Below are positions 6,585 through 50,478 of a stretch of DNA of 64,000 nt, piece by piece. Position 1 is the first letter of the stretch, and each line of letters starts with the position of its first letter. The stretch is from Cryomorphaceae bacterium (GTDB taxonomy: Bacteria; Bacteroidota; Bacteroidia; Flavobacteriales; UBA7430). The stretch lies in the NCBI GenBank assembly GCA_019649675.1, contig BOWN01000001.1:354868-418867 (forward strand). The letters are read 5' to 3'. Both the position numbers and the translations under genes were made by a program. The notes under the pieces are model-generated. The model made no database searches, was not told where the DNA came from, and saw only the letters and a program-made list of their open reading frames with translations.

Positions 6585-7783
6585 ATAAAGCTAAAAATGG
6601 CTTTTTCAAGGATAACGCCAAGCGTTTAAGTAAATGTCCTTTTCTTCCGGAAATAGAGCCTTTTTTATAACCATCAAACCAGAGTTTAGTGTAAACAAAT
6701 GCATATCCTGCACAGGTAATGTGATCAATTTGATTCCCAACCTTGCGAAGATATAACTGTTTACTCCCATTTTCCTTCATCATATTAAAAGCTGTAATAG
6801 AGTTTTCTTTTAGAACTCTTTTGTCTCGAACACAATAACAAAATTGTGTAGGCACATCTGTTTTCCAATCAATTAAATTATTTTCCTCCAATGCAAGTTT
6901 AAATTTGAAGTTTGGATTGTTTAAATATTGATCAACCAAATATGGTTGCACCACATCTACAGGTATTTCAGGTAAATAGTCATTAATCTGAAAAAGATCT
7001 AGTTCACCCTTATATATATTAGGGATAATAGTATCATAAGGTGCTATAAAAGACTAGATGAGTTATCATCTGTAATTTTATAAACCTCGTTATATGACAT
7101 TAACAAGTAAGGCAAATATGCCGGATCAGGATAAGGGAAAACATTACCGAAGACTGCGCTCCCGACATGTCATATGAACCAGACATGGGTGATGATGCCG
7201 TAATCTTAATTTCTGGGAAAGTCTCCTGAAGCTTTTTATGAGTTGCCAAACAGGCATGTCCTCCTTGAGAATATCCAGTAAGATAAAGCTGTTCACTTGT
7301 TTTTTGATTTAATTTTTGATTGAGCTGCTGAACAGCAAAATACATGTCGATAGCTGCATCAGCTTCTGAATTTGAATGCTGATAAAGATGTGATTTATCT
7401 CCTTTGCCTAAGCCGATGTAATCGGGCATAATAACCGCATAACCATCGACTGAAAATCCAGCACAAATAGCTTTTTCTCGACAAATATCGAAATTCCGTT
7501 CAATCATTATTTGTGTGCCATGATGATAAATAAGTTGTGGAATAGATGCTGTATTTGTTACAGGTAAAAAATACAATCCCGAAGCATTTATTTTAGTCCC
7601 ATCGTGCCACTTTGTTGAGTAAATTACTTCATATAAATCAATAGGATTTGAAATATTAACTATAAACTTAGGCATCCCGTTTGTTTTCCATGCTTTTTTT
7701 AAATCGGATTTATTTAGACTAGAAACTTTAGTATATGAAATAAGTTCTTGAGAGTAAGATGCCGAAATACTTAAAAACAACAA
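6544..7783 (-). pseudogene. secreted alpha/beta hydrolase (secretory-lipase-like), fragmented by at least 2-3 frameshifts
   Basis: ORF 7100..7783 carries the nucleophile elbow GYSQGGHA. Reading across 6955-7150 in the other frames gives ...PDPAYLPYLLMSYNEVYKITDD...APYDTIIPNIYKGELDLFQINDYLPEIPVDV, joining to ORF 6544..6954. The true stop may be at 6581 after another shift. The N-terminus is hydrophobic. Confidence 0.6.
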
Positions 7784-19186: not shown

Positions 19187-19329
19187 AACTAAAATTCTAA
19201 AGTAAAAAATTTATTACAGCTCGAATTTATGAATTTTTATATGTGATTTTTACCTTCAAGCTATTATATATTAACAAAATAATTAAAGTATAATAAGCTT
19301 AACAAACATAGATTTATTACAAATAAAAA

Positions 19330-19349
19330 GGGCTCCGAAATCGGAGCCC
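19330..19349 (-). terminator. rho-independent terminator downstream of the giant gene
   Basis: Perfect 8-bp GC-rich stem GGGCTCCG / CGGAGCCC with a 4-nt loop. Flanked by A5 (19325-19329), which is a U-tract on the minus strand, and by TTT on the plus side. It lies 22 nt after the stop at 19372. Confidence 0.8.
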
Positions 19350-19371
19350 TTTATAAATATTTAAGTATGAA

Positions 19372-22300
19372 TTACCTAACAAATTGTTCTACAGAACCAT
19401 CATCGTATACGTTGAATAGAACTGTTCCTTTGAATGGCTCATCATCCAAGTTTACTTCTTGTCCTAATACGTTGATTACTTTTACCAATACTCGCTCTGT
19501 AGTATTTAGCTCTGTAATCGTATTATTAGTTTCAATAGTAGAAGCTACGCTAATACCATTTACTTGGTAAGAAGAAGAACCTTCAATCCATTTAGAAACT
19601 GTAAAGTCACTAACTTCATTTGTGTTCCATACTTTGAATGATACTGATTCTGAAACAACCATACCATCTTTAGATGTTGTTGTTGCATCATCACCCCATA
19701 CTGTAACAACTGTTACAGGACTAGAGTAGATTGCAGACCCAACCATGTTACCATCCTTATCAAACGCTGCAATCTCAGCTCCTTCTGTTGGAAGAATGTC
19801 CCAAGCAGCATCTTCAATAACAACAGTCATGTTGTTATCTGTAGGAGCTACTTTAGAATAGTGAGATACATTGTTTTCTGTAACTTCAGTAGAAGACATT
19901 CTGTAAGAATCTCATTAGATAAGTACTGAAGTACATCTACATTGTTAGTTTTCAATTGGTAACCTTGACCAGGGAACATATCACCGATACCGTTAAAGTT
20001 CCATTCTGGAAGATAAGCAGCACCATTGTAATCCTTAGCAATAACTAAGTTACCTGTAGCATTGATATCACCTAATACAGCATCTGCTGCAGCTGGTTCA
20101 GTACGTAAGTAACCAACCATATTCCAACCTGCGGTAAGATCTACAGGGTTCTCTTCTGGGAATGCATAAGCACCAGAAACTTCTAATTCAACAGCCTCAG
20201 TAGTCTTGATTTGGTAACCTTGACCTACAAGTAAATCACCAACACCGTTGAAATTCCATTCAACTAAGTAAGCAGCACCAGAATTATTCTTAGCAATGAT
20301 TACATTGTCAATGATTGGAGAAAGTACAGATGCCATATCCATATCGTCAGCAATCATATAAGTAGAGAACATAGACCAACCTGAAGGCAATTCTAACATT
20401 TGAGATGAAGGACCAGCTGGTACTTCAGAAATACTCGCCACAAATGTCAATCCATTTGTAGTGAACACATCAGGACCATTAGAATATGTTGCTTCACCAG
20501 CAAATACATTACCGTTACAGTCAGCAATTAACCATACTAATGCTTCACCAGCAACAAGACCGTCTACTTCATCAGTAGTAGTATCATCACCCATAGCAGC
20601 GATCTGTACAGTTTCGTTTGGTGTAATTTCTGCACTACCTGCACATACTAAATCACCATTATCATTAGTATAGAATACACCAACATTTGCGTGTTCTAGT
20701 ACAGTACCTTCAGCCATTTGTGGAAGAACTCCCGCAGGTATCATAATAGTGTGATTAGAACCTGTTACAGTAACTGCCCAATCTGCAGGAGCTGGACAAG
20801 TTGGACCAACATCACCACCACAAGTAGCATCGAAGACAACAGTTCCTGTATCACCCGAAGGAAGATCTCCAGAAGCTATCGAGTCACAAGCTGCAACAAC
20901 TGCAAAAGAACCACCGTTCCATCCATCACCATAGGAGTCCATCATAACCATTGTATATGAAGCACCTTCAACTAAACAAACATCAGTAGAATAAACTAAA
21001 TCATTAGCGTATCCAGAGCCTGAAGCAACTGATATACCTGATTCATCTAAAGATCCCATGACATTTCAGATGCATATAATGCTGTAGATATATTAACAGT
21101 TGCATCGAAACCATTACAAGGATAAGTACATGACCCATCATCTGCTGTGGCAACAGCATCGTAATTTAATGCTGACTCATCCGTACAACCAAAGATGTCT
21201 CCACAAACTGCCATAAACTCTTCTGACATAGTTGACACATCAGTCATTGGAACAAATCCAGTTAGAGATTCTTGACAAAGGAAGATTTCATATCCACCAT
21301 TGAATATACCATCACCCCAAGTATCAGTTAATACAAATTCTATATCTGAACCATTATCAACACAATAAGTAGTAGTAACAGTAGTGATTTGATCACTTGA
21401 AGTCAAGTTAACACTAGCAGCTAATAGTCCATCTACATATAAAGCAAATGAATTTTCAGAACCTGAGTAAGTATCTGTAGTTACTAGGATATCAACTTGA
21501 GCTTGCCCATCATCACATGAATAATAACATGAGCCATTTCTGCGTTTGCAGAAGGATCAAGTTATCTGCACCAGGATCAGTACAACCATAAACAGTTGTA
21601 AAGCAGCTACCATCATCATGGGTTTTGCATTAGGGTCATAGTTATCTGCACCTGGGTCAGTACAGCCAAAGACTGCAAACTCACATTCACTATTAAGGTT
21701 AAAGTCAGCAATAGCTTCAGAACCCGAATCAATAGTAGCATCAAGGATAACTTCGCCATTTGAAGTTAAAACAGCTGAAGCACCATTCCATCCATCACCA
21801 TATGAATCGAACATTTGTAATGTATAACAACCATCTTCAAGACATAAATCATATGTTCCAGCAATACCTGAGTTCTCACCGAGAGTCCATGAAATTTCAC
21901 CATCCCAAGTTCCACCACAACTTCTAAGGTAAGAGGATTACAAGTTCCAAGGAATGTTGCACATGAACCATCATCAACCTGCGCATCTGGTTAAATTCTG
22001 CATAATTAGAATCTGTACATCCCATTACACAGATCCCATCATATCTGGAATACTACCAGCACCACCTTCGAATACAATTTCGCCTGATGGATTCATAAGT
22101 GAGAACGATGTTTCATACTCGAATGAACCTGAATTCCAACCAAACATGATACAAGACTCAAGATCTACATCTACACAAACTGTTGCAGACACACCATCAT
22201 CATTAACACCATCAAGTGTATAAGCTGTTCCATTGATAATTAGCTCATTACCATTCCATGAATCACCAAATGAATCATTCATAGTTAAAGTAAATCCAGA

Positions 22301-25300
22301 TTCACAAGGGTATTCACATGAACCATCATCATCAGTAGCCATTTCATCGAAATTCAATGCAGTTGAATCGGCACAACCAAAAACTTGAGAAATTGTCAAA
22401 GTAATAGCATTTGCACCATTAAAGTAAGAAGACTCTTGCGTACTGTAAGGTAGTTGTCTGGAGACACCCACCAATATAACGTGAACTCATCTCCTGCACC
22501 ATAACCTGAATCTAAGTAAAGATCTTCTAAAGCACCTGTATCAGTCCAATTCAGTGAGTCAGTTGCTGCACTAGGGAAAAATTGTCATAGAGCCTTCTAA
22601 GTCATTACTATCTGTTGAGAAGTAAATATAGTAGAATCCTTCCACCAACTAATGAAGATGGGTATAATGGCTCCCACGTGAATGTTAGAGGATTAAGAGA
22701 ATCTATTTCAGACAATGCAATAACAGACCCAGAGGCTGGCTCTAGCATTGAAGGAACATAATACTCACACAATCCATCATCATGAGTTGCAGCTGAATCA
22801 TAATTTAATGCATTTTCATCAATACATCCAGGTACTATATCATCACACGAAGTAAGTGTAAATGGATAGTCTTCACCTGATCCAGCTGGCATTCCACTAG
22901 CTTGGCTTACACCACCTTCGATAGCATTAGGGCAAGAAGTGATAGCAAAAGTACCACCATTCCATCCATCACCCCATGAATCTTGAGTAGAGAAAATAAA
23001 TTCTTCACCAATAGGTAAACAAATCTGGTGTTCATATGAAGTATTATTTGTTAATGGACCATCTAATACATCAGATAACAATTGAGTACTATCAGAATCA
23101 ATAAGTTGCCATGTAACCTCACCAGCATATAAACCAGTAGTAACATTTACAGTTTACATATTCACCATCACATCCATAAACACATTCTTCGGGTTATTAG
23201 TGTTATCAAACATCGAATTTAATGCAGTTTCATCAGTACATCCGTATAAAAAATGGAACACAGTTTCCTCTGTTACATTAGCGTCAGGGTTATAGTTAAA
23301 CGCTTTCATCCTACATCCAGGAATTTAACCCATCACATGGAACTAATGAAACTTAGATGACTCTAAATAATAGTCACCGGCAACAACAGTTGAATCGTTT
23401 GCAGGGGGAAGCTCCACCATTGTTTGCAACTACATATGAGAATGCAAGAGAATCTTCTCCACAAGTGGTTGAGATTGAATAAGTAGAACCATTCCATCCG
23501 TCACCAAATGAATCATAAGCATTCATAGTGTAGCTATGACCTTGATCTAAACATAAAGGTACATCAACTACATCACCAGTAGAATAGCCTGTACCAGATT
23601 CTAAAATAAGACCAGTCGAATCAATAAGTTCCCAATATAGTTCAGAACCATAGGTGTTTGCATCGATAGTCATGATAGCAGAGGTTGCTTCACAAGGATA
23701 TAAACACTCTTCACCTTCTACATTTGCATCTGCATTGTAGTTATCTGCATATTCATCCATACATCCGGCAACAACATCAGCTGAATTAACGGTTAAATCA
23801 AATTGTAAGCCATTGCAAAGAGAGACGTTTGATTAACATTAGTAATATGTCCGCTTCTACAGAACTCAAAAGCAAGAGCTGTATCTCCACAGCTTGCATA
23901 AATATTTACCTCAGCAGAGAGAAGTGTAACTACCTACAATAGATACAGTAACATATTGAGGGTATCAAATGATACTGAATACCATCATTATCAAAGTAAT
24001 ATCCAGTTGCGGTTGAATCCATAGCAATAGCCTCTTCACAAGTTTCAGAAGAAGGATATTCACAAGAACCGTCATTTGCTACTGCTAATTCGTTGTAATT
24101 AGTTGCCATCATATCTGTACAACCTAATAATTGTGAACAATCATCGTCAGTTGATAAACCAAATGTTGAAGCAGTGTTGTCACCACCACCATTTGCAACA
24201 GAGACACCATTATATTCAGTTGAAACTGACCATGAAGTCTCTGAAATATATGAACCGCCATCAACCGAAATTGCATAACAGCCAGCAGGAACACAAAGAA
24301 CATCAGCTCCTGACTCAGACTTTCACATTGAGCAAAGGATTTTGATCTTCACTGTAATCTGGACAATCAGCATTGGTTAACCCCCCAGTAGCAACAACTT
24401 CTCCGGAAGCATTCACTAAAGTGTATAAGTTACCATTCCATCCATCACCATATGAGTCTTCCATTGAGATGAAAACCTTCTAAACCTTCATCACAAGAAA
24501 TTCCCTGTGATACATGAACCATCATCAACATTTGCAGTTTCATCGTAATTTGATGCTGTGCTATCCATACACCCTGCTACTATTAATGTAAGACATGAAC
24601 CATCACCCGTCATTAGCATTTTCGTCATATTCCAAATAATCTGCTGATGACAACCAGGATATAAACATGATGCATCATCTGAATTAGCATCAGGATTAAA
24701 GTTTGAAGCTAGAGAATCTGTACAACCAAAAATGTTGTACCCAATCTTGGATAGAAAAAATCAATAGATGCCTCGCCCAGTTTCAAGTCCTCCTGAAACT
24801 GCAACTAATGAACCATCACATGTAGTGACAGAGAGCTACCACCGTTCCATCCGTCTCCGTATGAATCTGATAAGTTTGCGGTGTAAGCATTAGCATCAGA
24901 CAAACATAAATCAATTGTTTTATTCAGTATCATTAGATAATGAAGTACCTTCATCTGGTAATGATGCTAAGACTTGGTTTTTTAAATCAGTAATTGTGAA
25001 GCTAATTTCACTTCCCATGAAAACAGTTGTTAGGGTAAGCTGAGCTGCTGTTTGAAAGACATTTACGAACTGACATGAACCATCTTTTTGAGTTGCAGCA
25101 GGATTGAAGTAATCGCTGAAGCATCTGTACAACCTAAAACATACTCACACGAGCCATCATCGTTGGTTGCAGAAGGATTATAATTTTCTGCTATCACATC
25201 TGTACAACCATAAATATATTCACAAGATCCATCATCTACAGGTAGCAACGTCACTGAAGTTTGCAGCACCAGAATCAGTACAACCTAAAATCACTACTTC

Positions 25301-27148
25301 AATAGAAATATTGTAATCTACATCCCCGATTTCAGGAACTGTTTGAACAACATTTAAAAAATATGTACCTGCCTGTAAAGAATCAGCAGAAGCAACCAGT
25401 ACCATCACAATCAGAATAAACTGTAGTTTCGATAAACTCAGGGAAATCTGTGACTGCAGATACATTTACATCCGCAGAACCAGCAGCAACCATTTCAAAT
25501 GAGAACCATGACATACCACCAGTATTAGAAGAATCAGATCCTAATAAAGAGGATGCGTATTGACAAGAGAATGGATATTCACATAAACTATCATCTACAA
25601 TATCTGCATTAGGATTAAAGTTAACTGCAGTAGAATCTGAACATCCAGATTCACAATTTCCAAAGAATCCATCTGCATCTGCACCTGATGCTAATTCTGC
25701 ACCTAATGCATCTGTAATTGACCAACTATTCTCGTAAGACCATGCATCTGTTGGTTCATAAATTACTGTGTTACACGCTGATAAATCAACACAAGCAGTA
25801 GTTGCAGAAGAAGAACCAGAGTTAGTAGCTGTTACACCACCTACTGTTACAGCTCCACCACCGTCTCCGTATGAATCGAACATGTTGATTGTCACTGCAT
25901 CACCTGATAAACAGTTCCCATCACAATCTAATCCTGAAGCAGGACTTCCACGACCCATCATCTGTTGTTGCATCTGCATTATAATTGCATGCTAAAGAAT
26001 CAGTGCAACCAGTAACACCAAAACACCGAATGATCCAGTTCCTGATCCGCCTGCACCTGAAAGTGTGTCAACTGACCAAGATGTTTCACCATCCCATGCA
26101 CCTGGTGTCCATGATACTGAATTACATGCTGCTAAATCAATACATGCTGTATTAGATGAACCTTCAAGCACAGTGAAATCCAACCATTAATTGTCAATAC
26201 CGCACCATTCCATCCATCTCCATATGAATCAGTCATTGTTAATAATTCACCAGATAAACAGTTACCACCCAGTCTAAGCCTTCAGCAGAAAAAATCATGA
26301 ACCATTATCTTGCTCTGCGCTGCACCCAGTTTCAATTCTCTTTACATCCTTGAATGGGGTATCACAAATGAATTATCTACTATATCACATTGCGTTATAA
26401 TTCTCACCCAATGAGTCTGCCAAAGCTACAATCCCCCAAATAACCATCTTCAGCTCCTCCTGAAGCTAAAATCGTACTATCTAAATCTGTAATGAACCAA
26501 CTATTTTCATAAGACCATGAATCTGTTGCTTCATAATCTACTGCATTACATGCTGTTAAATCTACACATGCTTCAGTGACTGAAGAAGAGCCAGAATTGG
26601 TAGCTGTTACGTCACCAACTGTTACTGTTCCACCACCATCACCTATGATCAACCATGTTGATAAAAACAACATCCCCCTCATGGAAAGGACCCTTACAGC
26701 TTGTTTTTTCATCACCAGAATCTTCAGAACCTCCAAGAACCTGCCTACATACCTGGGAATCCATTTTTCCCCAATATTTGCCTTTTTAATAAACCCATCG
26801 CACAATCAGGCTAAAAGCATTTCCTTTGCGCTGTTCCATCACATAAGGGATTACCACAAGTTTTTTTGATATCTACTCCTGTTGAACATGAACATCCCTG
26901 AACATCCCCCGAGTCACAAAAGGCCTGATCCCAAAGCTGGAAACCTTTTTTTAAAAAATTTACTAAAATCTTCATCAAAAAACCATCTGCACAATCAGCT
27001 GGCCAAAAAGCATTCCCAAAAGCGCTGTTCCTCACAAAATCCCCATGTTACAGGAGTTAATTACAACACCTGTCGAATCATCTTGTGCATTTACAGTAAG
27101 CGAAATCACACAAAATAATGAGAAAAGAAATAATGTAATTTTCTTCAT
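19372..27148 (-). pseudogene. giant (~2,590-codon) Cys-rich repeat surface/secreted protein with T9SS C-terminal sorting domain; heavily fragmented reading frame
   Basis: Signal peptide MKKITLFLFSLFCVISLTVNAQDD from ATG 27148. Fifteen minus-strand ORF fragments of at least 60 aa all share DS[YFW]GDGWNG modules and GCTDxxAxNYxxxAxxDDGSCxY knots. The C-terminus (19372..19899) ends ...VLVKVINVLGQEVNLDDEPFKGTVLFNVYDDGSVEQFVR, a typical T9SS type-A CTD. Terminator at 19330. Confidence 0.8.
20900..26810 (-). repeat. coding tandem array of DSxGDGWNG / ExSW modules separated by ~24-aa Cys knots (divergent at DNA level)
   Basis: The reverse-complement signature ccattccatccatcacc (GDGWNG) or close variants recurs near 20917, 21311, 21784, 22249, 22953, 23489, 24431, 24841, 25855, 26207 and 26629. 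DDGSC knots recur near 21126, 21521, 21600, 21957, 22320, 22765, 23165, 23690, 24040, 24503, 24590, 24660, 25063, 25140, 25215, 25590 and 25965. Confidence 0.75.
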
Positions 27149-40572: not shown

Positions 40573-42137
40573 ATGGTATTCTTTATAAAAAAAATTAGCG
40601 CTCAACTAAAATATACTTTCTTCTGTTTTATAAGTACAGTTCTGTTGTTGCAATGTGCCAGCATTCAAAGCCCAAGTGGGGGTAAAAAAGACACAAATCC
40701 ACCTACCGTATTAAGCTCTATACCAAAACAAGCTGAAACAATGGTTAAACCTTCGATGATTCAAATTCAATTTGACGAATTCTTTGTGCTAAAAAACTTA
40801 GCCAATGAGCTGTTAATTTCGCCACCGCTTAATGAAGCGCCAATCATTTCACAAAAAGGAAAAAGCCTGTTCATCGAACTTCAAGAAGAGCTAAATAACA
40901 ACAGTACTTACACACTAAATTTTGGAAAAGGAATTGCCGATTATCACGAAGGAAATGTACTTAAAGATTATGCCTTAGTCTTTAGCACCGGCGCCGAACT
41001 TGACTCACTTGAAATACAAGGAAGTATAGCTGCTTGTCCAGATAAAACACTCCCAGAAGACCTTATCGTTGGAATATACCAAACAGACAGCCTAACAAAA
41101 GACTCTACAATTTATCTAAACAAGCCCGATTACTTTAGTTTAATAGATGAACAAAATCAGTTTCACATAAAATACATCCGAGATGGGAACTATGAGCTTA
41201 TCGCATTCAAAGATGTAAATGCAAACTACAAATACGATGGTGCTTCTGAACAAATTGCTTTTCACGACAAAATCATAAATATAAACGATAGTGTAACCTG
41301 TAAAATATGGTTATTTTCAGAAGAAGATACATTAAAATTACTCGACAATAAAGATAATGGGCGCATACATTGGACCTATAATAAAGAAATAGATACTGCT
41401 ACTTTTCACGCAGATACAACACTTAAATACTTTAGTGAAATTAAAAAAGACAGTCTATTTCTATGGCCTTATAATATGAGTTCGGACTCTGCATATGTAT
41501 GGGTAAAAGTGGGTCAACGATGCGATTCTATTTTAATAAAAAAAGACAGTCTAAAAAGAAATATAAACATCTTAACACTTTCATCGGATTATATAAAAGA
41601 TTCGGAAAACATACATTTAAAGACATCTGAACCTATTACCAGTATAGATAGCTCCAAAATTGAGCTTGTAACAGATTCAATTAAAATCGATTTCACCCCA
41701 ATCAAAGGTGATTTCACACTTGACATAGAATTCGAGTATCTTGTAAATAAAGAATATAATCTCATTATAAATCAAGGGGCAATAAAAGGCCTCAACAAGA
41801 GTGAAAATGACAGCACTAATATTTCCTTCTACACCAAAAGCGAAAGTCTTAGCTGTACTTAAAATAAACACAACATTACAAGACACTGTTTATTTTATTG
41901 AACTTCTTAAAGATGGTGATATTATAGAAACCATAGATTCTGGAAAATCACTTTATTTTGAAAAACTTTTACCGGGCGCTACGAAATGCGACTTATCGTC
42001 GACTAAATCAAGATGGTAAATGGACAGCAGGAAACTATTTTGAGAATGTTCTTCCAGAAAAAGTTTATTATTATCCGGAGCTCATCAACCTAAGAGCCAA
42101 TTGGGAATTAGAAGTAGATTGGGAAATTAATCCCTAA
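40573..42137 (+). pseudogene. Ig-like (SbsA/Big_5-type) domain lipoprotein, three frameshifts near the 3' end
   Basis: Lipobox LLLQC followed by SPSGGKKDTNPPTV. ORF 40573..41862 continues in other frames as ...TPKAKVLAVLKINTTLQDTVYFIELLKDGD...LLPGRYEMRLIVD-LNQDGKWTAGNYFENVLPEKVYYYPELINLRANWELEVDWEINP-stop 42137. Confidence 0.6.
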
Positions 42138-42905
42138 TCTTAAAGGTATCTCGATCCGATAAAAAGGGTGCCGTTTGCGACATTCTATAAGATAATTCTT
42201 AGACAAGGTCACTTCTACTAAACCAACTTCGTATTCAGGAGCCATAGAAATACGGTCGCCCTCAGGGTCTAAAACTTGCGAATGGCCCGGATACTGAGCA
42301 TTAAAACCATCGGTCCCTACACGGTTAAGACCAATAACATAAGCTTGATTTTCTATAGCGCGGGCTTTTAAAAGTGCATCCCAAGCAGAAATTCGTGTGT
42401 TTGGCCAATTTGCTACAAATAAAAGCAGATCATAATCCACATCGTTACGCGCAAATACTGGAAAACGCAAATCGTAACAAATCATAGGGCATATTTTCCA
42501 GCCTTTATACTCAATAACCAATCGCTTAGTACCTGCAGTAAAATACTTGTCTTCTTCAATCAAACTAAATAAATGTCGCTTATCATAGTGAAGCACTCGC
42601 CCATTGGGCTCCACCCATAAAAGACGATTAAAAACATGCACTTTATCTTTAATCATGACAGAGCCACATAAAACCGCTTTTTTCTTTTTGGCTAAAGCCT
42701 TCATCCAAACAACTGTTTCACCATCCATCGTTTGAGCCAAATGTGTCGAAGCTACAGAAAACCCTGTGCTGAATAGCTCAGGCAAAAGAATAATATCTGC
42801 ACCTGTCACCTCTGCTAAATAAGCATCAATCTCAGCTCTATTTTTCAGAGCATCTTCCCAGTGCAAATCACATTGCAACAAACATATATTTAGAGCTTTC
42901 TTCAT
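42108..42905 (-). CDS. carbon-nitrogen hydrolase (nitrilase superfamily, omega-amidase-like)
   Basis: 265 aa. LPELF (catalytic Glu), catalytic Cys in ICYDLRFPVFARN. The last ~15 codons may be out of frame: the alternative reading PFLSDRDTFKIRD-stop at 42127 looks more family-like. Confidence 0.85.
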   Translation of the reverse strand: MKKALNICLLQCDLHWEDALKNRAEIDAYLAEVTGADIILLPELFSTGFSVASTHLAQTMDGETVVWMKALAKKKKAVLCGSVMIKDKVHVFNRLLWVEPNGRVLHYDKRHLFSLIEEDKYFTAGTKRLVIEYKGWKICPMICYDLRFPVFARNDVDYDLLLFVANWPNTRISAWDALLKARAIENQAYVIGLNRVGTDGFNAQYPGHSQVLDPEGDRISMAPEYEVGLVEVTLSKNYLIECRKRHPFYRIEIPLRLGINFPIYF

Positions 42906-42959: not shown

Positions 42960-44189
42960 CTATTCAATCAATAAAGGCTTTCGTATATTTTGATGTTCAG
43001 TTTTTATATCCAGAATATAAAACCCTTTATCCAGACTAGTCACATCCAGTTGAAGGTCATTAACAGAAGCTAAAGATGGACATTTAACTTCACAACCAGC
43101 AGTATTAATCAATCTGAAATCATGTATTTGAAGCTCTGTTTTAACGATTAAATTCGAAGAGCTTGGATTTGGATAAATTTCAATATTAGCCTCTTCTGAG
43201 AGGTCAGGTACAGACAATTCAACGCCAGAAATTTTAGTAACACCCGTACTTGTCGCAACCCATACATTGTTTTGAGAATCTATGGCCAAATCTCTTACCA
43301 CAGGGCCTACCAAACCATTGAGCGCCCTCAACATAATCGTAATCGGTCCAAGAAGTACCATTCCAAACCGCCAAGCCACCAACACTTATCAAATAATCCA
43401 CATAAATTCCAGCCCAAACATTCCCATTCGAATCCAAAGCAACATCAACTACAGGGTTTAAGGTGTCGGGTGGTGGTAAAAGCAACATCATGGTATGGTG
43501 GTCGGAAATCATATTGTCTGTGTCTAAAACACTAATTCCTTGACCTGTAGCAACCCATTTATTGTCTGCTTCATCTAAAGCTATAGCGCGAACATTATTA
43601 TTAATTAAGCCAGAGGTTGTATTAAATATTGTGAAAGTTGTATCGTCAAAATGAACCACCCCAAAAATACTGCTGGCCAACCATTTATCGCCATTCGAAT
43701 CAAAAGTAACGTGATTAATACCTCCAAAAGGAAGACCATCAGCAGTCGTAAATGCTGTCCAAGCTTCACCATCAAAAACACTTAAGCCATCCTTTTCTCC
43801 AACCCAAATCCATCCGTTTGAATCTTCATTGATATGATTAATGCGATTGTCTCCCAAGCCATCTTCATCAGTATAACTTAAAGGAGTTGTTCCATCGTAC
43901 ACGGTCAAACCAAAATCTGTTCCTACCCATACGGAACCATCACTTGAGGTATAAATAGCCTTAACACATTATCAACTAATCCATCGTCAGTCGTATAGGA
44001 TTCCCAAGTAAAGCCATCAAAAAAAGCAACCCCGCTATTGGTCCCAAACCAAACATGATCATCAGCATCTACAGAAACACAATTCACCGAATTGTCAAGT
44101 AAACCATCTACCTCCAAATAATTTGTAAAATATTGAGCTGACAATGTGTAAGAAAAGAAAATAAGAATGTAAAATTTAAGCAACTTCAT
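42960..44189 (-). pseudogene. secreted beta-propeller protein with two-component-regulator-propeller (Reg_prop)-type repeats and T9SS CTD; 2-3 frameshifts
   Basis: Signal peptide MKLLKFYILIFFSYTLSAQ. Repeats of the form DGLxDNxVxxIxxDxxGxxWxGTxxGxxxFDG run across fragments 43923..44189, 43234..43908 and 42960..43385. C-terminus IEIYPNPSSSNLIVKTEL...GFYILDIKTEHQNIRKPLLIE is a T9SS CTD. Confidence 0.7.
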
Positions 44190-44200
44190 ACCTATTTATT

Positions 44201-46471
44201 TTAACGTTTAACCATTTTTATTGACATCAGATCATCATTCGACCTTACCGAAACTACATAAAGCCCCGCATTCAAATCTAAAACGGATAATTCGCCCGTA
44301 ATAATCCCTGCCGAAAGATCGGATTTAAAAACAACCCGACCTAATACATCTATAATTTGAATCTTAGAATTAGACTGAGATTCTATTTCAAAATAAAGCA
44401 CATCTAAAACTGGATTTGGATACAAGTTAAAAACAAGAGCATCGTCTAAAGGAATTAAATTGGCACCATCATTTGTTTGTTTAAATGTCGGAGAAAGTAA
44501 TGTAAAATCACCAAAGCCATTAGGCATTCTTCCGTAAGAAACATTTTCTATCTGTTCAGGAAACAAAACAGAATCAATCAACACCTGGTGTGCATCAGAA
44601 AGAAAAAGAGACTCTCCGGCCGATGAAAGCTTAAAGTTGGCATGACTTGATCCTTGGGCATCTTCTGAATCTGCCCAAATAATAAAATATGAACCAGCTG
44701 GAAGCTCCTGATTGGGAAGCGCCCATTTAGATAAATTAGTGGCATCATCGCTAAGATATAAGCCCCCTAAAGACAATTCATTTTCAGTGGTATTTAAGAG
44801 TTCAATCCAATCTTCATAGGATCCTTCTGCATCAGCAACCACATCCACATTCGAAGCCATCAATTCGTTAATCACAATATCTCCAGCATTCAGCTGCCCT
44901 TCTATTGAAAAATATTCATAAGCCGCTCGTTGGGGCGAAAAAGCACCAGCAGAATCGTTTTCAGCATAAATATAATAATCCACATCACGACCTTGAAATA
45001 AAAATTGTGATGAAAAAATACCGTCACCAGCAAGCACATCTCCACCGATTCCTTCATCATTCATGAGCAGCTCTTCGAATACGATGTCAGGCCTTGTTCT
45101 GTAGAATAAAATAACCTCTGATGCATTTGATGCCTGAACAGTAATAACAAGCATATCGTTTGAAACAGGCGCTTCAGGAAAAACACTAACATTCTCTATA
45201 TCGGGTGGCCCTTGAAAACCCAGACTAGTGCTTAGATAAGCAGCCCTGCCCTCCATGAGATCAACAATGCCTGGATAATCAATAAAATCGCTTACCGTTC
45301 CATACAAATTGTTTTGAAAATCGGCATAGGTATAAAACTTATTGGCATCATTTTGCACACTCTCATCGATAAGCTGATGGAGTGTTTCTGCACGGGTAAG
45401 ATACGCTTGATTTGATATGTTTTCTTGTACTATCGTTCGGATGTGGGCCAAATACATTTTTCTGTAACGGCTCGTATTAAATAGCTTTCGAAGCAAAGGC
45501 CTAGGGAAAACAGAAAATTCATTATAATGACTCAATGGGTCTAATGTTTTAGCTTGTTCTATGCTAAAGCCATCAAAATAAACTGAGGCATCTGTTAAAC
45601 GAAAACTCCCAAGAGACATGTTTAAATCCCAGATAATTGGGTTAAATCGTCCCGCCTTATCTTGATACAGGTAGTAATTCTGAGCATAACCCACATAACT
45701 GTCAAAATTAATAAGGGTATAGTTTAAAGCATGCAGCCACAGAGCCTGATCTACATTTAAAACCTTATCTATGTCGGCTTCATGATTGTTTAAAGTATCG
45801 ATGAAATTATACAAAGCAGTCCAGCCATAATCCGACTGCATAGAATAAAGTAAGGTATATGCTAAAGAATCCATGCCTGGCGTTTGGCTTAAATTTGAAT
45901 TTTCGCCGAATAGGTCAACCGTTTCTGGGTTACCTTTTACTAAAACATTGTCTGCAGTAGTGAAGTGTTTTTCTAGAAACTCATTGTTCACAGCCTCTAC
46001 ATTTGAATACAAACCTAACAAAGTATCATTTACATAAACATTCGCAAAATTGGACTCTGATGCAGGCATATACTTTCGGGCAATTTGATAAGACAAAACT
46101 TCTCTAAGAAAGGATGGATCTTGAATAACATTACTCAATTTTATTTTATCAATGCCTTGATGATCTTGCCCCTCAATAAGGTAATTTAATTTAATATTAA
46201 ATGGGTTTTTTACACGATCTACACTCGCAGAACTATAGCCTTTATAACGCACGCCAACACTATCGTACTGAATACCATCTATAAACAAAGTAGCTTGCAT
46301 GCGCCCTTTATCTCCGGCCACATACAAGCTGTCTAATATTTCATCCCAGTTGCTTTGAGCAAAGGTTATTCTTATATCGCGAATCGTATCTGTACTGTAA
46401 AATCCCTCTTGAGCAAACAACATCATAGAGGAGAAAAATAATAGGATACAAAGTATGGCCCTACAAATCAT
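44201..46471 (-). CDS. CotH-family (atypical kinase fold) protein with lamin-tail domain and T9SS CTD
   Basis: 756 aa, intact. CotH-like core (NVYVNDTLLGLYSNVEAVNNEFL, NYYLYQDKAGRFNPIIWDLNMSLG), LTD (IVINELMASN...EDWIELLNT...ANFKLSSAGESLFLSD), and CTD (LYPNPVLDVLYFEI...GLYVVSVRSNDDLMSIKMVKR). Confidence 0.8.
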   Translation of the reverse strand: MICRAILCILLFFSSMMLFAQEGFYSTDTIRDIRITFAQSNWDEILDSLYVAGDKGRMQATLFIDGIQYDSVGVRYKGYSSASVDRVKNPFNIKLNYLIEGQDHQGIDKIKLSNVIQDPSFLREVLSYQIARKYMPASESNFANVYVNDTLLGLYSNVEAVNNEFLEKHFTTADNVLVKGNPETVDLFGENSNLSQTPGMDSLAYTLLYSMQSDYGWTALYNFIDTLNNHEADIDKVLNVDQALWLHALNYTLINFDSYVGYAQNYYLYQDKAGRFNPIIWDLNMSLGSFRLTDASVYFDGFSIEQAKTLDPLSHYNEFSVFPRPLLRKLFNTSRYRKMYLAHIRTIVQENISNQAYLTRAETLHQLIDESVQNDANKFYTYADFQNNLYGTVSDFIDYPGIVDLMEGRAAYLSTSLGFQGPPDIENVSVFPEAPVSNDMLVITVQASNASEVILFYRTRPDIVFEELLMNDEGIGGDVLAGDGIFSSQFLFQGRDVDYYIYAENDSAGAFSPQRAAYEYFSIEGQLNAGDIVINELMASNVDVVADAEGSYEDWIELLNTTENELSLGGLYLSDDATNLSKWALPNQELPAGSYFIIWADSEDAQGSSHANFKLSSAGESLFLSDAHQVLIDSVLFPEQIENVSYGRMPNGFGDFTLLSPTFKQTNDGANLIPLDDALVFNLYPNPVLDVLYFEIESQSNSKIQIIDVLGRVVFKSDLSAGIITGELSVLDLNAGLYVVSVRSNDDLMSIKMVKR

Positions 46472-46474
46472 AAA

Positions 46475-48033
46475 CTATTTTACTAGAGAAATGCGCTGTG
46501 TGTTGGTGTTGCCTTTTTCGTCAATTACAGTCACAAAATACAAACCATTCGCACAAGTGGTAAGATCAATCTTTTTGAGGTTTGCTCGGTAATAAGTACT
46601 CCAGAAGCATTTGTAACTTGAATCATAATATCTTCCGACTCGAAGCCTCGAACTTCAAAAAATCTGTTTGAAGGATTCGGGTAAATTGAAAGCTTCTGCA
46701 AAACTTGCTCTGAAAGTGCTGTTTCATCTTCACATGGGTTATCTAATAAAATAGCAATTCCTGGATGCTTACACTCGTATCTAAAAGCTTTTGGTGTTCC
46801 ATTACCACCTGCATTGTATTGCCATACAATATTTCCTAAAGAATCTTCTTCATACATATATCCTGCACCGCCTTGACCACCAGATAAGTTTACAAAAACA
46901 TTTCCATTGGACATCCGATTCGAAGCAGACTGACCACTCGCATAACCATTACAAGTGTGTCTCCAAGAAAAAGTTGATGGCCCATAAGCCTGACCAGGTT
47001 CGAGGGTATAATTATACCCATCTAAAGGAGTTTCTATCGCATCAACGGTAGAGGTATTATTTCCGCCACCATTGTTATTAAAAAATTGCAAGAATCCGCC
47101 GTTAGGTCTACCATCGTTTGTAATCCATCTAACATCATGAACTGCAGAAGGGATTTGCTGTGAACCCGGTGCGCCATAATTTGATGGATTTCCCCAACGG
47201 TAAATAATATCTCCACCCATACCCGTATTTCCTCCAGTATGTCCAGCAGCTTCAGCTGATGTGGTACTGTGGTCTATAATATAAACCTCACTGGCATGTC
47301 GAGATGAAAAAGCAATTTGATCTAATTCGGCATTGTAATTAACACCATTTACATGAAACCAATCGCCGCTTGATCCACCAGGCCCGCCACCGCCAGGACC
47401 ACCGCCACCAGGACCACCGCCGCCACCAGCTTGAATCATATTTATGTCTATAAGCTCAGGATGGTCTGCAACCACACCATAATTGTCTTTTGTTTCATCA
47501 TGATCTTGAATGAGATGATCCCAAATATGCCACTCCCAAACTATTTCTCCTCCACCTGAACCATCATGAGCAACTTCTACAAAGTGGGTTGGCCATTTTT
47601 CTGTAGTGGCACCATCATAACCAGCCTGAGTTAACTGGTTTGTCGATTTCACTTCCCAAGCCGTTAATAACACATTATCATTCACAAGTGTTATATCGTG
47701 GTGTGAAAGATGGGTATTATCAGAATAGGTAAATTCCCAAACTATATTTCCATCCGGATCTATTTCTTGAACCCTCCCGCCTTGTGCAGCACCTGTTAAT
47801 TGATTCCCAGGATTAACAGCTCCTCTAACAATATTTCCATTATTTTTCAATAACACTGTATAGTTACAATTCAAATCACAATTCCATGTATGGGCTATAT
47901 CCCCTTCTTTATCTATCAAATATGTGGTATTGTTATTTTGGGCATTGTATAATGCAAAGCCATCAAATTCTGACTGCGCATAAATGCTTTGAGCTATAAA
48001 TCCAAAAAACAAAGTAAGTAGAGGTGTTTTCAT
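46475..48033 (-). pseudogene. arylsulfotransferase (ASST)-like beta-propeller protein with Gly/Pro insert and T9SS CTD; one frameshift in the CTD
   Basis: Signal peptide MKTPLLTLFFGFIAQSIYAQ. HHDITLVNDN, IVWEWHIWDH and DWFHVNGVNYNAELDQIAFSSRHASEVYIIDH resemble ASST family proteins (from memory). The ORF ends at 46531, but shifting frame near 46575 gives KKIDLTTCANGLYFVTVIDEKGNTNTQRISLVK-stop 46475, which completes a T9SS CTD. Confidence 0.6.
47374..47427 (-). repeat. GC-rich imperfect 15-nt x3 tandem repeat encoding GGGGGPGGGGPGGGGPGG
   Basis: Plus strand reads ccaggcccgccaccg / ccaggaccaccgcca / ccaggaccaccgccg. It lies inside the ASST-like gene and is conspicuously GC-rich against the AT-rich background. 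Confidence 0.85.
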
Positions 48034-48161
48034 TTAAATCTTTTTAAGAGGCAAAAGCCATTATACTTAATTACTTAATCATCTTTCAGTGAGAAAGATC
48101 ACCAAAACAAAAATAAATCTAGACCAAAGCTAATGAATTTAAAAGTAAAATATTGAAACTA

Positions 48162-48189
48162 AAAAAGCCATCATTAATGATGGCTTTTT
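48162..48189. terminator. bidirectional rho-independent terminator between hppA and the T9SS cargo operon
   Basis: Perfect 28-nt palindrome AAAAAGCCATCATT|AATGATGGCTTTTT (core stem GCCATCA/TGATGGC, loop TTAA) with an A-run on one side and a T-run on the other. It lies 23 nt after the hppA stop. Confidence 0.75.
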
Positions 48190-48211: not shown

Positions 48212-50478
48212 CTAAAGAACAAAGTCTTCTTTAGTCTCAGTTACTTCAGTATCAAGAACTTCAATAGTTGTCGTGTTTTCTTCCATCTCTAAATTCGAAG
48301 TATGATGCGAAGCACCACCTAATATTGGTGCAATAACAAGACCTATTAAACAAGTTAGCTTAATTAAGATATTCATAGAAGGACCAGAAGTATCTTTGAA
48401 AGGATCTCCAACTGTATCTCCAGTTACAGCTGCTTTGTGAGCATCAGACCCCTTGTAAGTCATTTCTCCATTGATTTCAACTCCGGCTTCAAAAGATTTC
48501 TTAGCGTTATCCCAAGCACCTCCAGCATTGTTCTGGAAAATTGCCCATAAAACACCACTTACTGTAACACCAGCCATATAACCACCTAACATTTCAGCAA
48601 TTGCTTTATTATCCATTCCAAAAATCATTGGAACAAATGCAATTACCAAAGGGAATCCGATTGTTAATAAACCTGGTAACATCATTTCTTTTAATGAAGC
48701 TTGTGTAGAAATTGCCACACACTTATCATATTCAGGCTTCTCTGTTCCTTCCATAATGCCAGCAATTTCTTTAAACTGACGTCTTACCTCATGTACCATT
48801 TCCATGGCAGCTTTACCTACAGCATTCATTGCTAATGCAGAGAATACTACAGGAACCATCCCTCCAACAAATAGCATAGCTAAAACAGGTGCTTTAAAGA
48901 TATTAATCCCATCAATACCGGTAAAAGTAACATAGGCAGCAAATAAAGCCAAAGATGTTAATGCTGCAGAAGCAATAGCAAACCCTTTACCAGTTGCAGC
49001 GGTTGTGTTTCCTACTGAATCTAAGATATCTGTTCTTTCTCTTACTATAGGATCTTGCTCACTCATTTCAGCAATACCTCCTGCATTATCAGAAATAGGG
49101 CCAAATGCGTCAATTGCTAGTTGCATAGCTGTGGTAGCCATCATTGCTGATGCCGCTAAAGAAACGCCATAGAACCCAGCAAATGCATAAGAAGACCAAA
49201 TAGCACCGGCAAATAATAATACTGACGGGAATGTGGAAATCATCCCTGTAGCTAAACCAGCGATGATATTTGTTCCAGCTCAGTGCTAGATTGTTGAACG
49301 ATTTTTAAGATTGGTGATTTTCCTAATCCTGTATAGTATTCAGTTACTGAAGAAATTACAGCACCTACTACTAGCCCTATTAGGGTTGCGTAGAATACAC
49401 TCATTCTAGAAACTTCTTTCACTCCTTCGCCAAAGAACTCCATATTCATCGTTTCAGGCAACATGTAGTAACACAATCCAAAACAAGAAACAGCTACTAA
49501 AATAATAGAGGTCCAGTTTCCTATGTTTAAAGCATTCATTACCTGAGCTTCTTTAGCATCGTTACTGTTAATTTTTACCAGCATGGTACCAATGATTGAA
49601 ATAATAATTCCAGCACCAGCAATTGCCATTGGTAGTATAATTGGTCCAACTCCTCCAAAGGCATCAGAAATACTTCCACCCATGTCTTTGATAACATAGT
49701 TACCTAATACCATTGCAGCTAATACTGTAGCAACATATGAACCAAATAAATCGGCACCCATTCCAGCTACATCACCTACGTTATCACCAACATTATCGGC
49801 AATTGTTGCAGGGTTACGAGGGTCATCTTCAGGAATACCAGCTTCTACTTTACCTACAAGGTCAGCACCTACATCGGCCGCTTTTGTGTAAATACCACCA
49901 CCCACACGTGCAAATAATGCAATTGACTCAGCCCCTAAAGAGAATCCGGCTAAAGTTTCCAGAACGACAGTCATATCATGCGTATTGGTCCATTCACCAC
50001 CCATAAAGAAATTATAAAAGACAATAAAGAAAGCAGTAAGACCTAAAACGGCTAAACTAGCAACACCAAGTCCCATTACGGTTCCACCTCCAAATGATAT
50101 TTTGAGTGCATTAGGAAGAGAAGTTCTTGCTGCTTGTGTTGTTCTTACATTTGTTTTCGTTGCAATCTTCATTCCCATATTTCCAGCCAAAGCCGAGAAA
50201 AAAGCACCAACCACAAATGAAATCACAATCATCCAGTGTGTAGAAGGCACTATTGTAGATACAACAAATAATAAAACACTAACAGCAACAACAAATAAAG
50301 TTAACAGTCTATATTCAGAATTTAAAAACGCTAAGGCACCTTCATAAATGTGATCTGAAATTTCTTTCATCTTACCATCTCCCGCATCTTGCTTCAAAAT
50401 CCAAGATTGTTTGACCATCATATATAGTAGGCCAATAAGCGCCATTATAATTGGCAAATATATCATCATTGATTCCAT
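48212..50478 (-). pseudogene. hppA: membrane-bound (V-type) inorganic pyrophosphatase, one frameshift; probably sequence error
   Basis: ORFs 49252..50478 and 48212..49243. Doubling the single C at 49281 gives ...VQQSSTGAGTNIIAGLATGMISTFPSVLLFAG. Motifs GNTTAATGKG and [14 protein letters not shown]. 2267+1 nt = 756 codons. Confidence 0.92.

Follow-up and report, generated by a model that had tools for sequence, protein, structure and literature searches.

A conserved three-gene cluster combining a CotH kinase-fold protein with ASST-like and Reg_prop propellers, all predicted type IX secretion cargo, in aquatic Bacteroidota

CotH, the spore-coat kinase of Bacillus, depends on two aspartates, the B. 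subtilis mutants D228Q and D251A being inactive (PMC7821199). Aryl-sulfate sulfotransferases (ASSTs) sulfate many phenols, alcohols and sugars from aryl-sulfate donors; the active site of the E. coli enzyme comprises H252, H356, N358, R374, the sulfo-histidine H436 and T501, and a sugar hydroxyl is the acceptor for Cpz4, an AST-type sulfotransferase whose sequence is only slightly similar to those of other ASTs (PMC13426309). In Gram-positive bacteria, CotH, a polyphosphate polymerase and DUF4956 are known as accessory genes of pel operons (Whitfield et al. 2020, PMC7112168; bioRxiv 10.1101/2024.04.20.589940, S. intermedius). The locus described here combines relatives of the first two proteins with a further propeller. 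It lies on the minus strand at 42960-48033 of a 64,000-nucleotide stretch (hereafter the window) from a Cryomorphaceae bacterium (GenBank assembly GCA_019649675.1, contig BOWN01000001.1, positions 354,868 to 418,867), and consists of three genes: upstream-most gene 1 (ASST-like propeller), then gene 2 (CotH) and gene 3 (Reg_prop propeller). Public automatic annotation calls such genes ‘aryl-sulfate sulfotransferase’, ‘spore coat protein CotH’ and ‘ligand-binding sensor domain-containing protein’. A literature search found no paper on the trio or on any CotH exported by the type IX secretion system (T9SS), and queries combining CotH with T9SS, type IX secretion, arylsulfotransferase or Flavobacteri* gave nothing relevant, in keeping with the remark in the original prediction that no described system of this composition was known. 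The trio gives secreted CotH kinases a gene-cluster setting that is widespread and conserved but has not been described before.

Comparison across genomes shows the three genes to be a single conserved cluster with tight linkage. A scan of one genome per species yielded 359 stretches encoding a relative of gene 2 (best identity 63%), the best 80 of which were examined. These 80 all came from uncultured aquatic, mostly marine, Bacteroidota: Flavobacteriales, including bins labelled Cryomorphaceae, Crocinitomicaceae, Vicingaceae and Parvicellaceae, and Saprospiraceae, with a few bins otherwise labelled. Nearly all of the 80 species-level genomes in which the contig was long enough contained the trio. 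Among 85 loci compared by tblastn and clustering of open reading frames (ORFs), the CotH gene was recovered in 81, the ASST-like gene in 77 and the Reg_prop gene in 75, with gene order and strand constant throughout; partner-less loci that were inspected had the CotH gene near a contig end. Any other gene family was common to 17/85 loci or fewer, and flanks varied among lineages. Spacing was tight (median gap of 3 nt at both junctions in 53 complete trios, with many junctions overlapping), and pairwise distance matrices of the three proteins were correlated (r 0.72-0.87). Look-ups beginning from ASST-like homologues (P0160, P0218 and P0225) or from a Reg_prop homologue (P0330) gave the same trio. 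The cluster had been put forward from the window alone as a single unit; it is indeed syntenic in related genomes, and its recovery from each of the three partners, with unrelated flanks, upholds the proposal of a conserved functional unit. The trio is very probably an operon, judging from this arrangement.

Some loci depart from the simple arrangement. In two, a second, diverged set of the three families was present (L003, 1-5806; L020, 451-7581) in the order ASST, Reg_prop, CotH, its ASST-like protein measuring 1,312 aa and bearing PKD/Ig domains; the families therefore stay together though their order changes. In four others (L028, L029, L063 and L088) the CotH gene is preceded by a tandem pair of ASST-like genes.

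Features of the locus are collected in the table below. The gene coordinates and the intergenic gaps of 3 nt (46472-46474) and 11 nt (44190-44200) given in the original prediction stand once frameshifts are corrected, but the genes are not unbroken as had been assumed: three single-base frameshifts, of which gene 1 has one and gene 3 the other two, had been read through unremarked. As written, the ORF of gene 1 ends at 46531, and it is the corrected stop at 46475, in another frame, that gives the 3-nt gap; the shift puts the last ~35 residues, most of the C-terminal sorting domain (CTD), out of frame. Gene 3 as written comprises three ORFs (43923-44189, 43234-43908 and 42960-43385). Corrections consisted of one base restored in the A-run at 46572-46576, one G added near 43965 and one base removed near 43321, and domain searches for genes 1 and 3 were run on the corrected proteins. 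All Pfam matches reported exceed the curated gathering cut-offs.

Features of the three-gene locus and its upstream region (nucleotide positions in the window unless given as residues).
Feature	Position	Strand	Basis or remark
Gene 1, predicted exported ASST-like six-bladed propeller with T9SS type-A CTD	46475-48033	-	519 aa once one base restored
Gene 1 signal peptide	aa 1-19	-	Sequence inspection
Gene 1 propeller	aa ~25-445 (46699-47961)	-	AlphaFold 2 (AF2) model, PF05935
Gene 1 active-site candidate H112	47698-47700	-	Alignment to E. coli ASST
Gene 1 Gly/Pro-rich insert GGGGGPGGGGPGGGGPGGSSG, directly before WFHVN active-site motif	47365-47427	-	15-nt tandem repeat
Gene 1 active-site candidate H227	47353-47355	-	Alignment to E. 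coli ASST
Gene 1 active-site candidate N229	47347-47349	-	Alignment to E. coli ASST
Gene 1 active-site candidate R245	47299-47301	-	Alignment to E. coli ASST
Gene 1 active-site candidate H299	47137-47139	-	Alignment to E. coli ASST
Gene 1 CTD	from aa 450 (46686 downward)	-	PF18962
Gene 1 frameshift	46572-46576	-	One base missing in or next to A-run (three-frame translation; gap at 46574 in alignment to L001)
Gene 2, CotH with lamin-tail domain (LTD) and CTD	44201-46471	-	Intact ORF, 756 aa
Gene 2 CotH kinase-like domain	45296-46252	-	Pfam
Gene 2 D257	45701-45703	-	NFD motif of B. cereus CotH
Gene 2 N265	45677-45679	-	HNY motif of B. cereus CotH
Gene 2 D282	45626-45628	-	PWD motif of B. cereus CotH
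Gene 2 middle beta-sandwich	about 44912-45199	-	Partial choice-of-anchor-X match (NCBIfam), between CotH and LTD
Gene 2 lamin-tail domain	44567-44890	-	Pfam LTD
Gene 2 T9SS type-A CTD	44204-44425	-	Por_Secre_tail
Gene 3, predicted exported single Reg_prop-type beta-propeller with T9SS type-A CTD	42960-44189	-	409 aa after two frameshift corrections
Gene 3 first frameshift	43963-43966	-	One G missing relative to L001 (gap at 43965)
Gene 3 second frameshift	43319-43323	-	One extra T relative to L001 (gap at 43321)
Perfect palindromic hairpin, A- and T-runs at flanks	48162-48189	.	RNA fold
TATTTTTG, match to Bacteroidota -7 box TAnnTTTG	48108-48115	-	Motif match, 75 nt upstream of gene 1 ATG

Gene 2 encodes a predicted CotH-family kinase-fold protein that keeps both aspartates needed for B. 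subtilis CotH activity. Its Pfam matches are CotH (PF08757, E = 3.4e-39, 135.7 bits against a cut-off of 23.8, residues 74-392), LTD (8.9e-15) and Por_Secre_tail (3.5e-10), and NF041940 also matches. The gene 2 family profile aligned to B. cereus CotH (5JD9) with an E-value of 8.5e-13, pairing INFD(257)SY...QN(265)YYLY...IIWD(282)LN with NFD...HNYALY...PWD. A distance of 23 residues separates the aspartates of the NFD and PWD motifs in B. cereus, as it does D228 and D251 in B. subtilis, whose numbering we presume to fall on these motifs; the 5JD9 sequence was taken from a PDB alignment. Among the CotH sequences from the loci, paralogues included, D257 and N265 were each conserved in 97/97 and D282 in 96/97. 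The CotH family profile searched against PDB sequences matched only sorting domains and not 5JD9, and a single-sequence search with the gene 2 protein did not reach 5JD9 either.

Gene 1 is, by sequence and model, a remote member of the superfamily of ASST propellers that act independently of 3′-phosphoadenosine-5′-phosphosulfate. The corrected protein matched Arylsulfotrans (PF05935, 3.9e-16, 59.5 bits against a cut-off of 24.2) and regained Por_Secre_tail (PF18962, 5.5e-10). An AF2 model of its propeller (pLDDT 77.5, pTM 0.82) had the AST-type sulfotransferase Cpz4 as closest PDB match (E = 4e-12, TM 0.54). Against the E. coli ASST, whose sequence was obtained by BLAST with a back-translated query, H112, H227, N229 and R245 aligned with H252, H356, N358 and R374 respectively; H299 (AVHDVRW) fell one column off H436 (TQHTAW) in the MAFFT alignment, and the Thr501 region was not alignable. 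All five candidates were invariant in 70/70 gene 1 orthologues. When the gene 1 family profile was run against E. coli ASST with hmmsearch, the alignment was limited to the HVN...SSR segment. No counterpart of the N-terminal beta-sandwich seen in the E. coli protein was found in gene 1, where the propeller begins about 5 residues after the signal peptide; that domain is a feature of the E. coli enzyme and may not be diagnostic of PF05935 as a whole.

The insert in gene 1 (TRF period 15, 3.4 copies) encodes a Gly/Pro-rich loop of GGGGP type. Its length varies in frame between the window, P0121 and L001, a metagenomic contig that is 94.2% identical to the window over 12 kb with the same flanking genes (indels against L001 at 47397-47413), and a Gly-rich stretch is also seen in the gene 1 family consensus. 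The ASST-like subfamily is separate and large, with 1,387 representatives of 50%-identity clusters at E<=1e-30. Four of its giant proteins (P0377, P0384, P0385 and P0423; 1,800-3,300 aa) have three to six matched propeller stretches each, so tandem arrays of ASST-like propellers exist.

Gene 3 is predicted to encode a single ligand-binding propeller of the type by which Bacteroides hybrid two-component sensors recognise glycans. In its 409 aa only Reg_prop repeats (2.5e-23) and the CTD (Por_Secre_tail, 8.1e-9) were found, and the AF2 model of P0241, a protein 95% identical to it, shows a single propeller and sorting domain (pLDDT 87.5). The best PDB matches of this model were the sensor domains BT3049, BT4663 (a heparin sensor) and BT4673 (E = 6e-15 to 3e-12), followed by PorZ. 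Two more specific identities were tried and rejected. Gene 3 has no second propeller, Y_Y_Y domain, transmembrane segment, histidine kinase or regulator domain and is not itself a hybrid two-component sensor, and its match to the PorZ equivalog NF052228 scored 49.8 bits against a cut-off of 260, covering only model positions 465-681, and it has one propeller, not two. The domain assignments of the original prediction have thus held for all three genes: the CotH and lamin-tail calls and the ASST-like propeller by Pfam scores above cut-off, the last also with Cpz4 as best fold match, and the free, secreted hybrid-sensor-type propeller by its repeats, nearest folds and missing signalling parts.

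Inspection by eye showed that all three proteins begin with a hydrophobic leader ending A|Q, and the Gln following the leader Ala is invariant in all three family alignments. TIGR04183 (NCBIfam) and Por_Secre_tail match all three, so that the expected pairing of signal peptide and T9SS CTD is borne out for gene 2 as written and for genes 1 and 3 only after correction. With a cleavable signal peptide and a type-A CTD in each, the three products should be exported by the T9SS and then either released or anchored at the cell surface.

The trio has immediate same-strand neighbours in 21 related loci, namely some or all of four genes: a VTC-domain polyphosphate polymerase (profile E-value 8.8e-23), a DUF4956 membrane protein (2.3e-55), DUF2490 (1.1e-21) and a small lipoprotein of 138 aa. 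An example is L022 (13527-18476); others are L024, L027, L038, L055, L057 and 15 more. Most of these loci have the VTC set after a second CotH-LTD-CTD paralogue, while in L024, L027, L055 and L057 it directly follows the Reg_prop gene and in L038 it lies upstream of gene 1. Its recurrence beside the trio, in roughly one related locus in four, hints at a possible connection between exported polyphosphate and the CotH kinase, though not one supported for the present genome.

We tentatively propose, as the best reading rather than a firm assignment, that the trio is a T9SS-exported surface module adding anionic groups to an extracellular polymer. The three proteins would act jointly outside the cell on one polymer, either a glycan or a protein, belonging to the surface or to the environment. 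This substrate would be held by the Reg_prop propeller together with the beta-sandwich domains; the CotH domain would add phosphate to it, and the ASST-like propeller would add or exchange sulfate from aryl-sulfate donors with no need of a nucleotide cofactor. Extracellular modification by a kinase and a sulfotransferase had been suggested speculatively from the window alone; we infer it still, and the invariance of the CotH and ASST catalytic residues strengthens it.

The main difficulty for such a surface module is the phosphoryl donor of an extracellular kinase. An extended version would meet it by making the trio the outer catalytic part of an envelope-spanning, polyphosphate-fuelled modification system, which we regard as a long shot. 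The VTC-type polymerase, the DUF4956 membrane protein and DUF2490, a putative outer-membrane barrel, would make and export polyphosphate; surface-tethered CotH would take its phosphoryl group from polyphosphate and not ATP, with the kinase perhaps kept there by its lamin-tail domain; the ASST-like propeller would use environmental aryl sulfates as sulfuryl donor; and the polymer recognised by the Reg_prop propeller would end up phosphorylated and sulfated.

Several observations weigh against the surface module, with or without polyphosphate. Bacillus CotH acts inside the mother cell, and we know of no supply of ATP to a surface-exposed kinase. No VTC or DUF4956 gene occurs in the 64-kb window or within 8 kb in L001, and these genes are absent within 10 kb from about three quarters of related loci. 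The kinship of gene 1 to ASSTs is remote: phmmer against the E. coli enzyme (3ELQ) gave an E-value of 0.014, a profile search of the gene 1 family against PDB sequences matched only sorting domains and not 3ELQ, and in the alignment the presumed nucleophile histidine is matched only with a one-residue shift while a counterpart of Thr501 could not be placed. No convincing promoter emerged from a sigma-70 scan or from tests of the TAnnTTTG motif, and no hairpin was found between gene 3 and the downstream C-N hydrolase gene, so that transcription in this lineage may run past the trio into that gene. Lastly, the frameshifts could be real.

Upstream, RNA folding bears out the predicted terminator hairpin at 48162-48189 (dG -15.9 kcal/mol, z -4.2, with 0/200 shuffles as stable). 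It sits just past the stop of the upstream H+-translocating pyrophosphatase (H+-PPase) gene and is an intrinsic-terminator-like element, predicted to insulate the trio from upstream transcription. The TAnnTTTG box proposed at 48108-48115 is present as described, but it offers no evidence of a promoter, because the motif shows no excess in the window (77 occurrences against 93 expected) and, at 20-120 nt upstream of orthologous gene 1, is barely commoner than in shuffles (6/51 loci against 3.5). Scans for sigma-70 promoters and terminators found fewer sites than in shuffles, and an Rfam search of the window had no match. The C-N hydrolase gene (42108-42905, minus strand) lies 54 nt past gene 3 on the same strand. 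L001 shares this neighbour, more distant genomes do not, and the gene falls outside the conserved unit.

Among other explanations, the trio might process substrates for nutrition or detoxification and not decorate the surface. The ASST-like enzyme would then remove or shuffle sulfate on algal aryl sulfates or sulfated glycans, CotH would act on exogenous dissolved or particulate organic matter, the propeller would capture substrate and the products would be taken up. Such a role would suit carriers that are all aquatic, mostly marine, members of a phylum generally known to degrade algal polymers, as it would a propeller resembling glycan sensors and a trio retained even on a 1.95-Mb contig that is possibly a whole small genome; the breadth of phenols, alcohols and sugars on which ASSTs act with aryl-sulfate donors (PMC13426309) points the same way. 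We nevertheless consider it unlikely: no SusC/SusD, glycoside hydrolase, sulfatase or transporter is consistently linked, nothing else being shared by more than 17/85 loci, and a kinase has no obvious catabolic role.

Somewhat less probable again is that the module is decaying in this genome, with real frameshifts, gene 3 a pseudogene and gene 1 deprived of its sorting domain. The indels are present in the window as given, and not all lie within long homopolymers. Against this, L001 is free of all three, its gene 3 being intact at 409 aa, and metagenomic relatives at 92-96% identity encode full-length proteins. Damage is not confined to the trio: the neighbouring H+-PPase gene (48212-50478, minus strand) is split into ORFs at 49252-50478 and 48212-49243 by a single base missing near 49281, whereas in L001 it is intact at 757 aa, and a very large repetitive gene for an exported protein (about 19300-27100, minus strand) is shattered into >10 ORF fragments. 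Downstream of each shift in the trio, protein identity is still about 95%, and dN/dS of the gene 3 segments against L001 is 0.19, 0.10 and 0.35, all <1 although based on few substitutions. Sequencing or assembly error is therefore the most likely origin of the frameshifts in genes 1 and 3, more so than decay. In the pilon-polished L001, gene 1 and the end of gene 2 are themselves frameshifted (about 7168-7171 and 10183), at sites differing from those of the window, which fits technical errors in both assemblies. The giant gene, whose modules repeat ‘DSYGDGWNG’ and ‘CTD..A.NY...A..DDGSCEY’ and whose GC content exceeds that of its surroundings, may be fragmented either by many indel errors in the region or because it is itself decaying.

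A non-catalytic role in adhesion or binding, with CotH as a surface ligand in the manner of fungal CotH invasins and the propellers as binding proteins, seems improbable. Mucorales CotH invasins bind host GRP78 (PMC6561750); gene 2 has two beta-sandwich domains, and all three proteins are predicted to be surface-tethered. Against it, sets of 70-97 orthologues with an overall identity of only about 50% show invariant catalytic residues in both enzyme families, which would not be expected of purely structural proteins. Finally, chance adjacency of three unrelated T9SS cargo genes, conceivable in that such genes are generally numerous and often clustered in Bacteroidota, is contradicted outright by the recurrence of one gene order and strand across about 80 species-level genomes, with differing flanks and median 3-nt gaps, by the rearranged second copy that retains the three families, and by the reciprocal look-ups, and it can be given almost no weight.

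Secreted kinases are well known in animals (Fam20C, Fam20B) and, to our knowledge, hardly studied in bacteria. The trio of these uncultured aquatic Flavobacteriales and Saprospiraceae pairs a CotH kinase with an intact predicted active site and predicted T9SS export with two propellers, one of cofactor-independent sulfotransferase type and one of glycan-sensor type. It is a well-delimited test case, conserved in many genomes and readily cloned, for a kinase working outside the bacterial cell. Were the enzymes active, they would reveal a type of surface or matrix chemistry not seen before, in bacteria through which much of the algal carbon in the ocean passes, and a role could be assigned both to an extensive, uncharacterised ASST-like subfamily and to the association of CotH with VTC and DUF4956 already seen in streptococci and clostridia. 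If the polyphosphate proposal were true, nucleotide-independent modification after export would be taking place at the surface of abundant marine Bacteroidota.

The module can be set beside four described systems. With the Bacillus CotH spore-coat kinase (PF08757; 5JD9/5JDA), gene 2 shares the domain, the catalytic aspartates and the HNY asparagine, but its 756-aa product carries additional domains, namely a beta-sandwich, a lamin-tail and a sorting domain; it is predicted to be exported by the T9SS, whereas the Bacillus protein resides in the mother-cell cytoplasm, and no CotB/CotG-like Ser-rich substrate gene lies nearby. Gene 1 resembles E. coli AssT (PDB 3ELQ) and Cpz4 (PDB 9KF4) in its PF05935 match, predicted propeller fold and conserved sulfuryl-binding residues. 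Both it and AssT are extracytoplasmic, by prediction in the case of gene 1, and have conserved cysteines, the E. coli enzyme being periplasmic and Dsb-dependent (assT is followed by dsbL and dsbI; L087); gene 1, unlike AssT, is without the N-terminal beta-sandwich and has the Gly/Pro-rich insert before the HVN motif and a T9SS CTD. Gene 3 has Reg_prop repeats and a structural likeness in common with both PorZ and the Bacteroides hybrid two-component sensors (BT4663, BT3049 and BT4673), but compared with those sensors it has one propeller instead of two and is without their Y_Y_Y, membrane anchor, kinase and regulator parts. Compared with the accessory genes of Gram-positive pel operons, the trio occurs with no pel genes, has predicted T9SS export and adds ASST-like and Reg_prop propellers that go unmentioned in those reports. 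What the two have in common is a secreted CotH-like kinase, by prediction here, with its catalytic residues and a C-terminal beta-sandwich domain, along with the VTC and DUF4956 partners, which sit beside the trio in 21 related loci of Bacteroidota.

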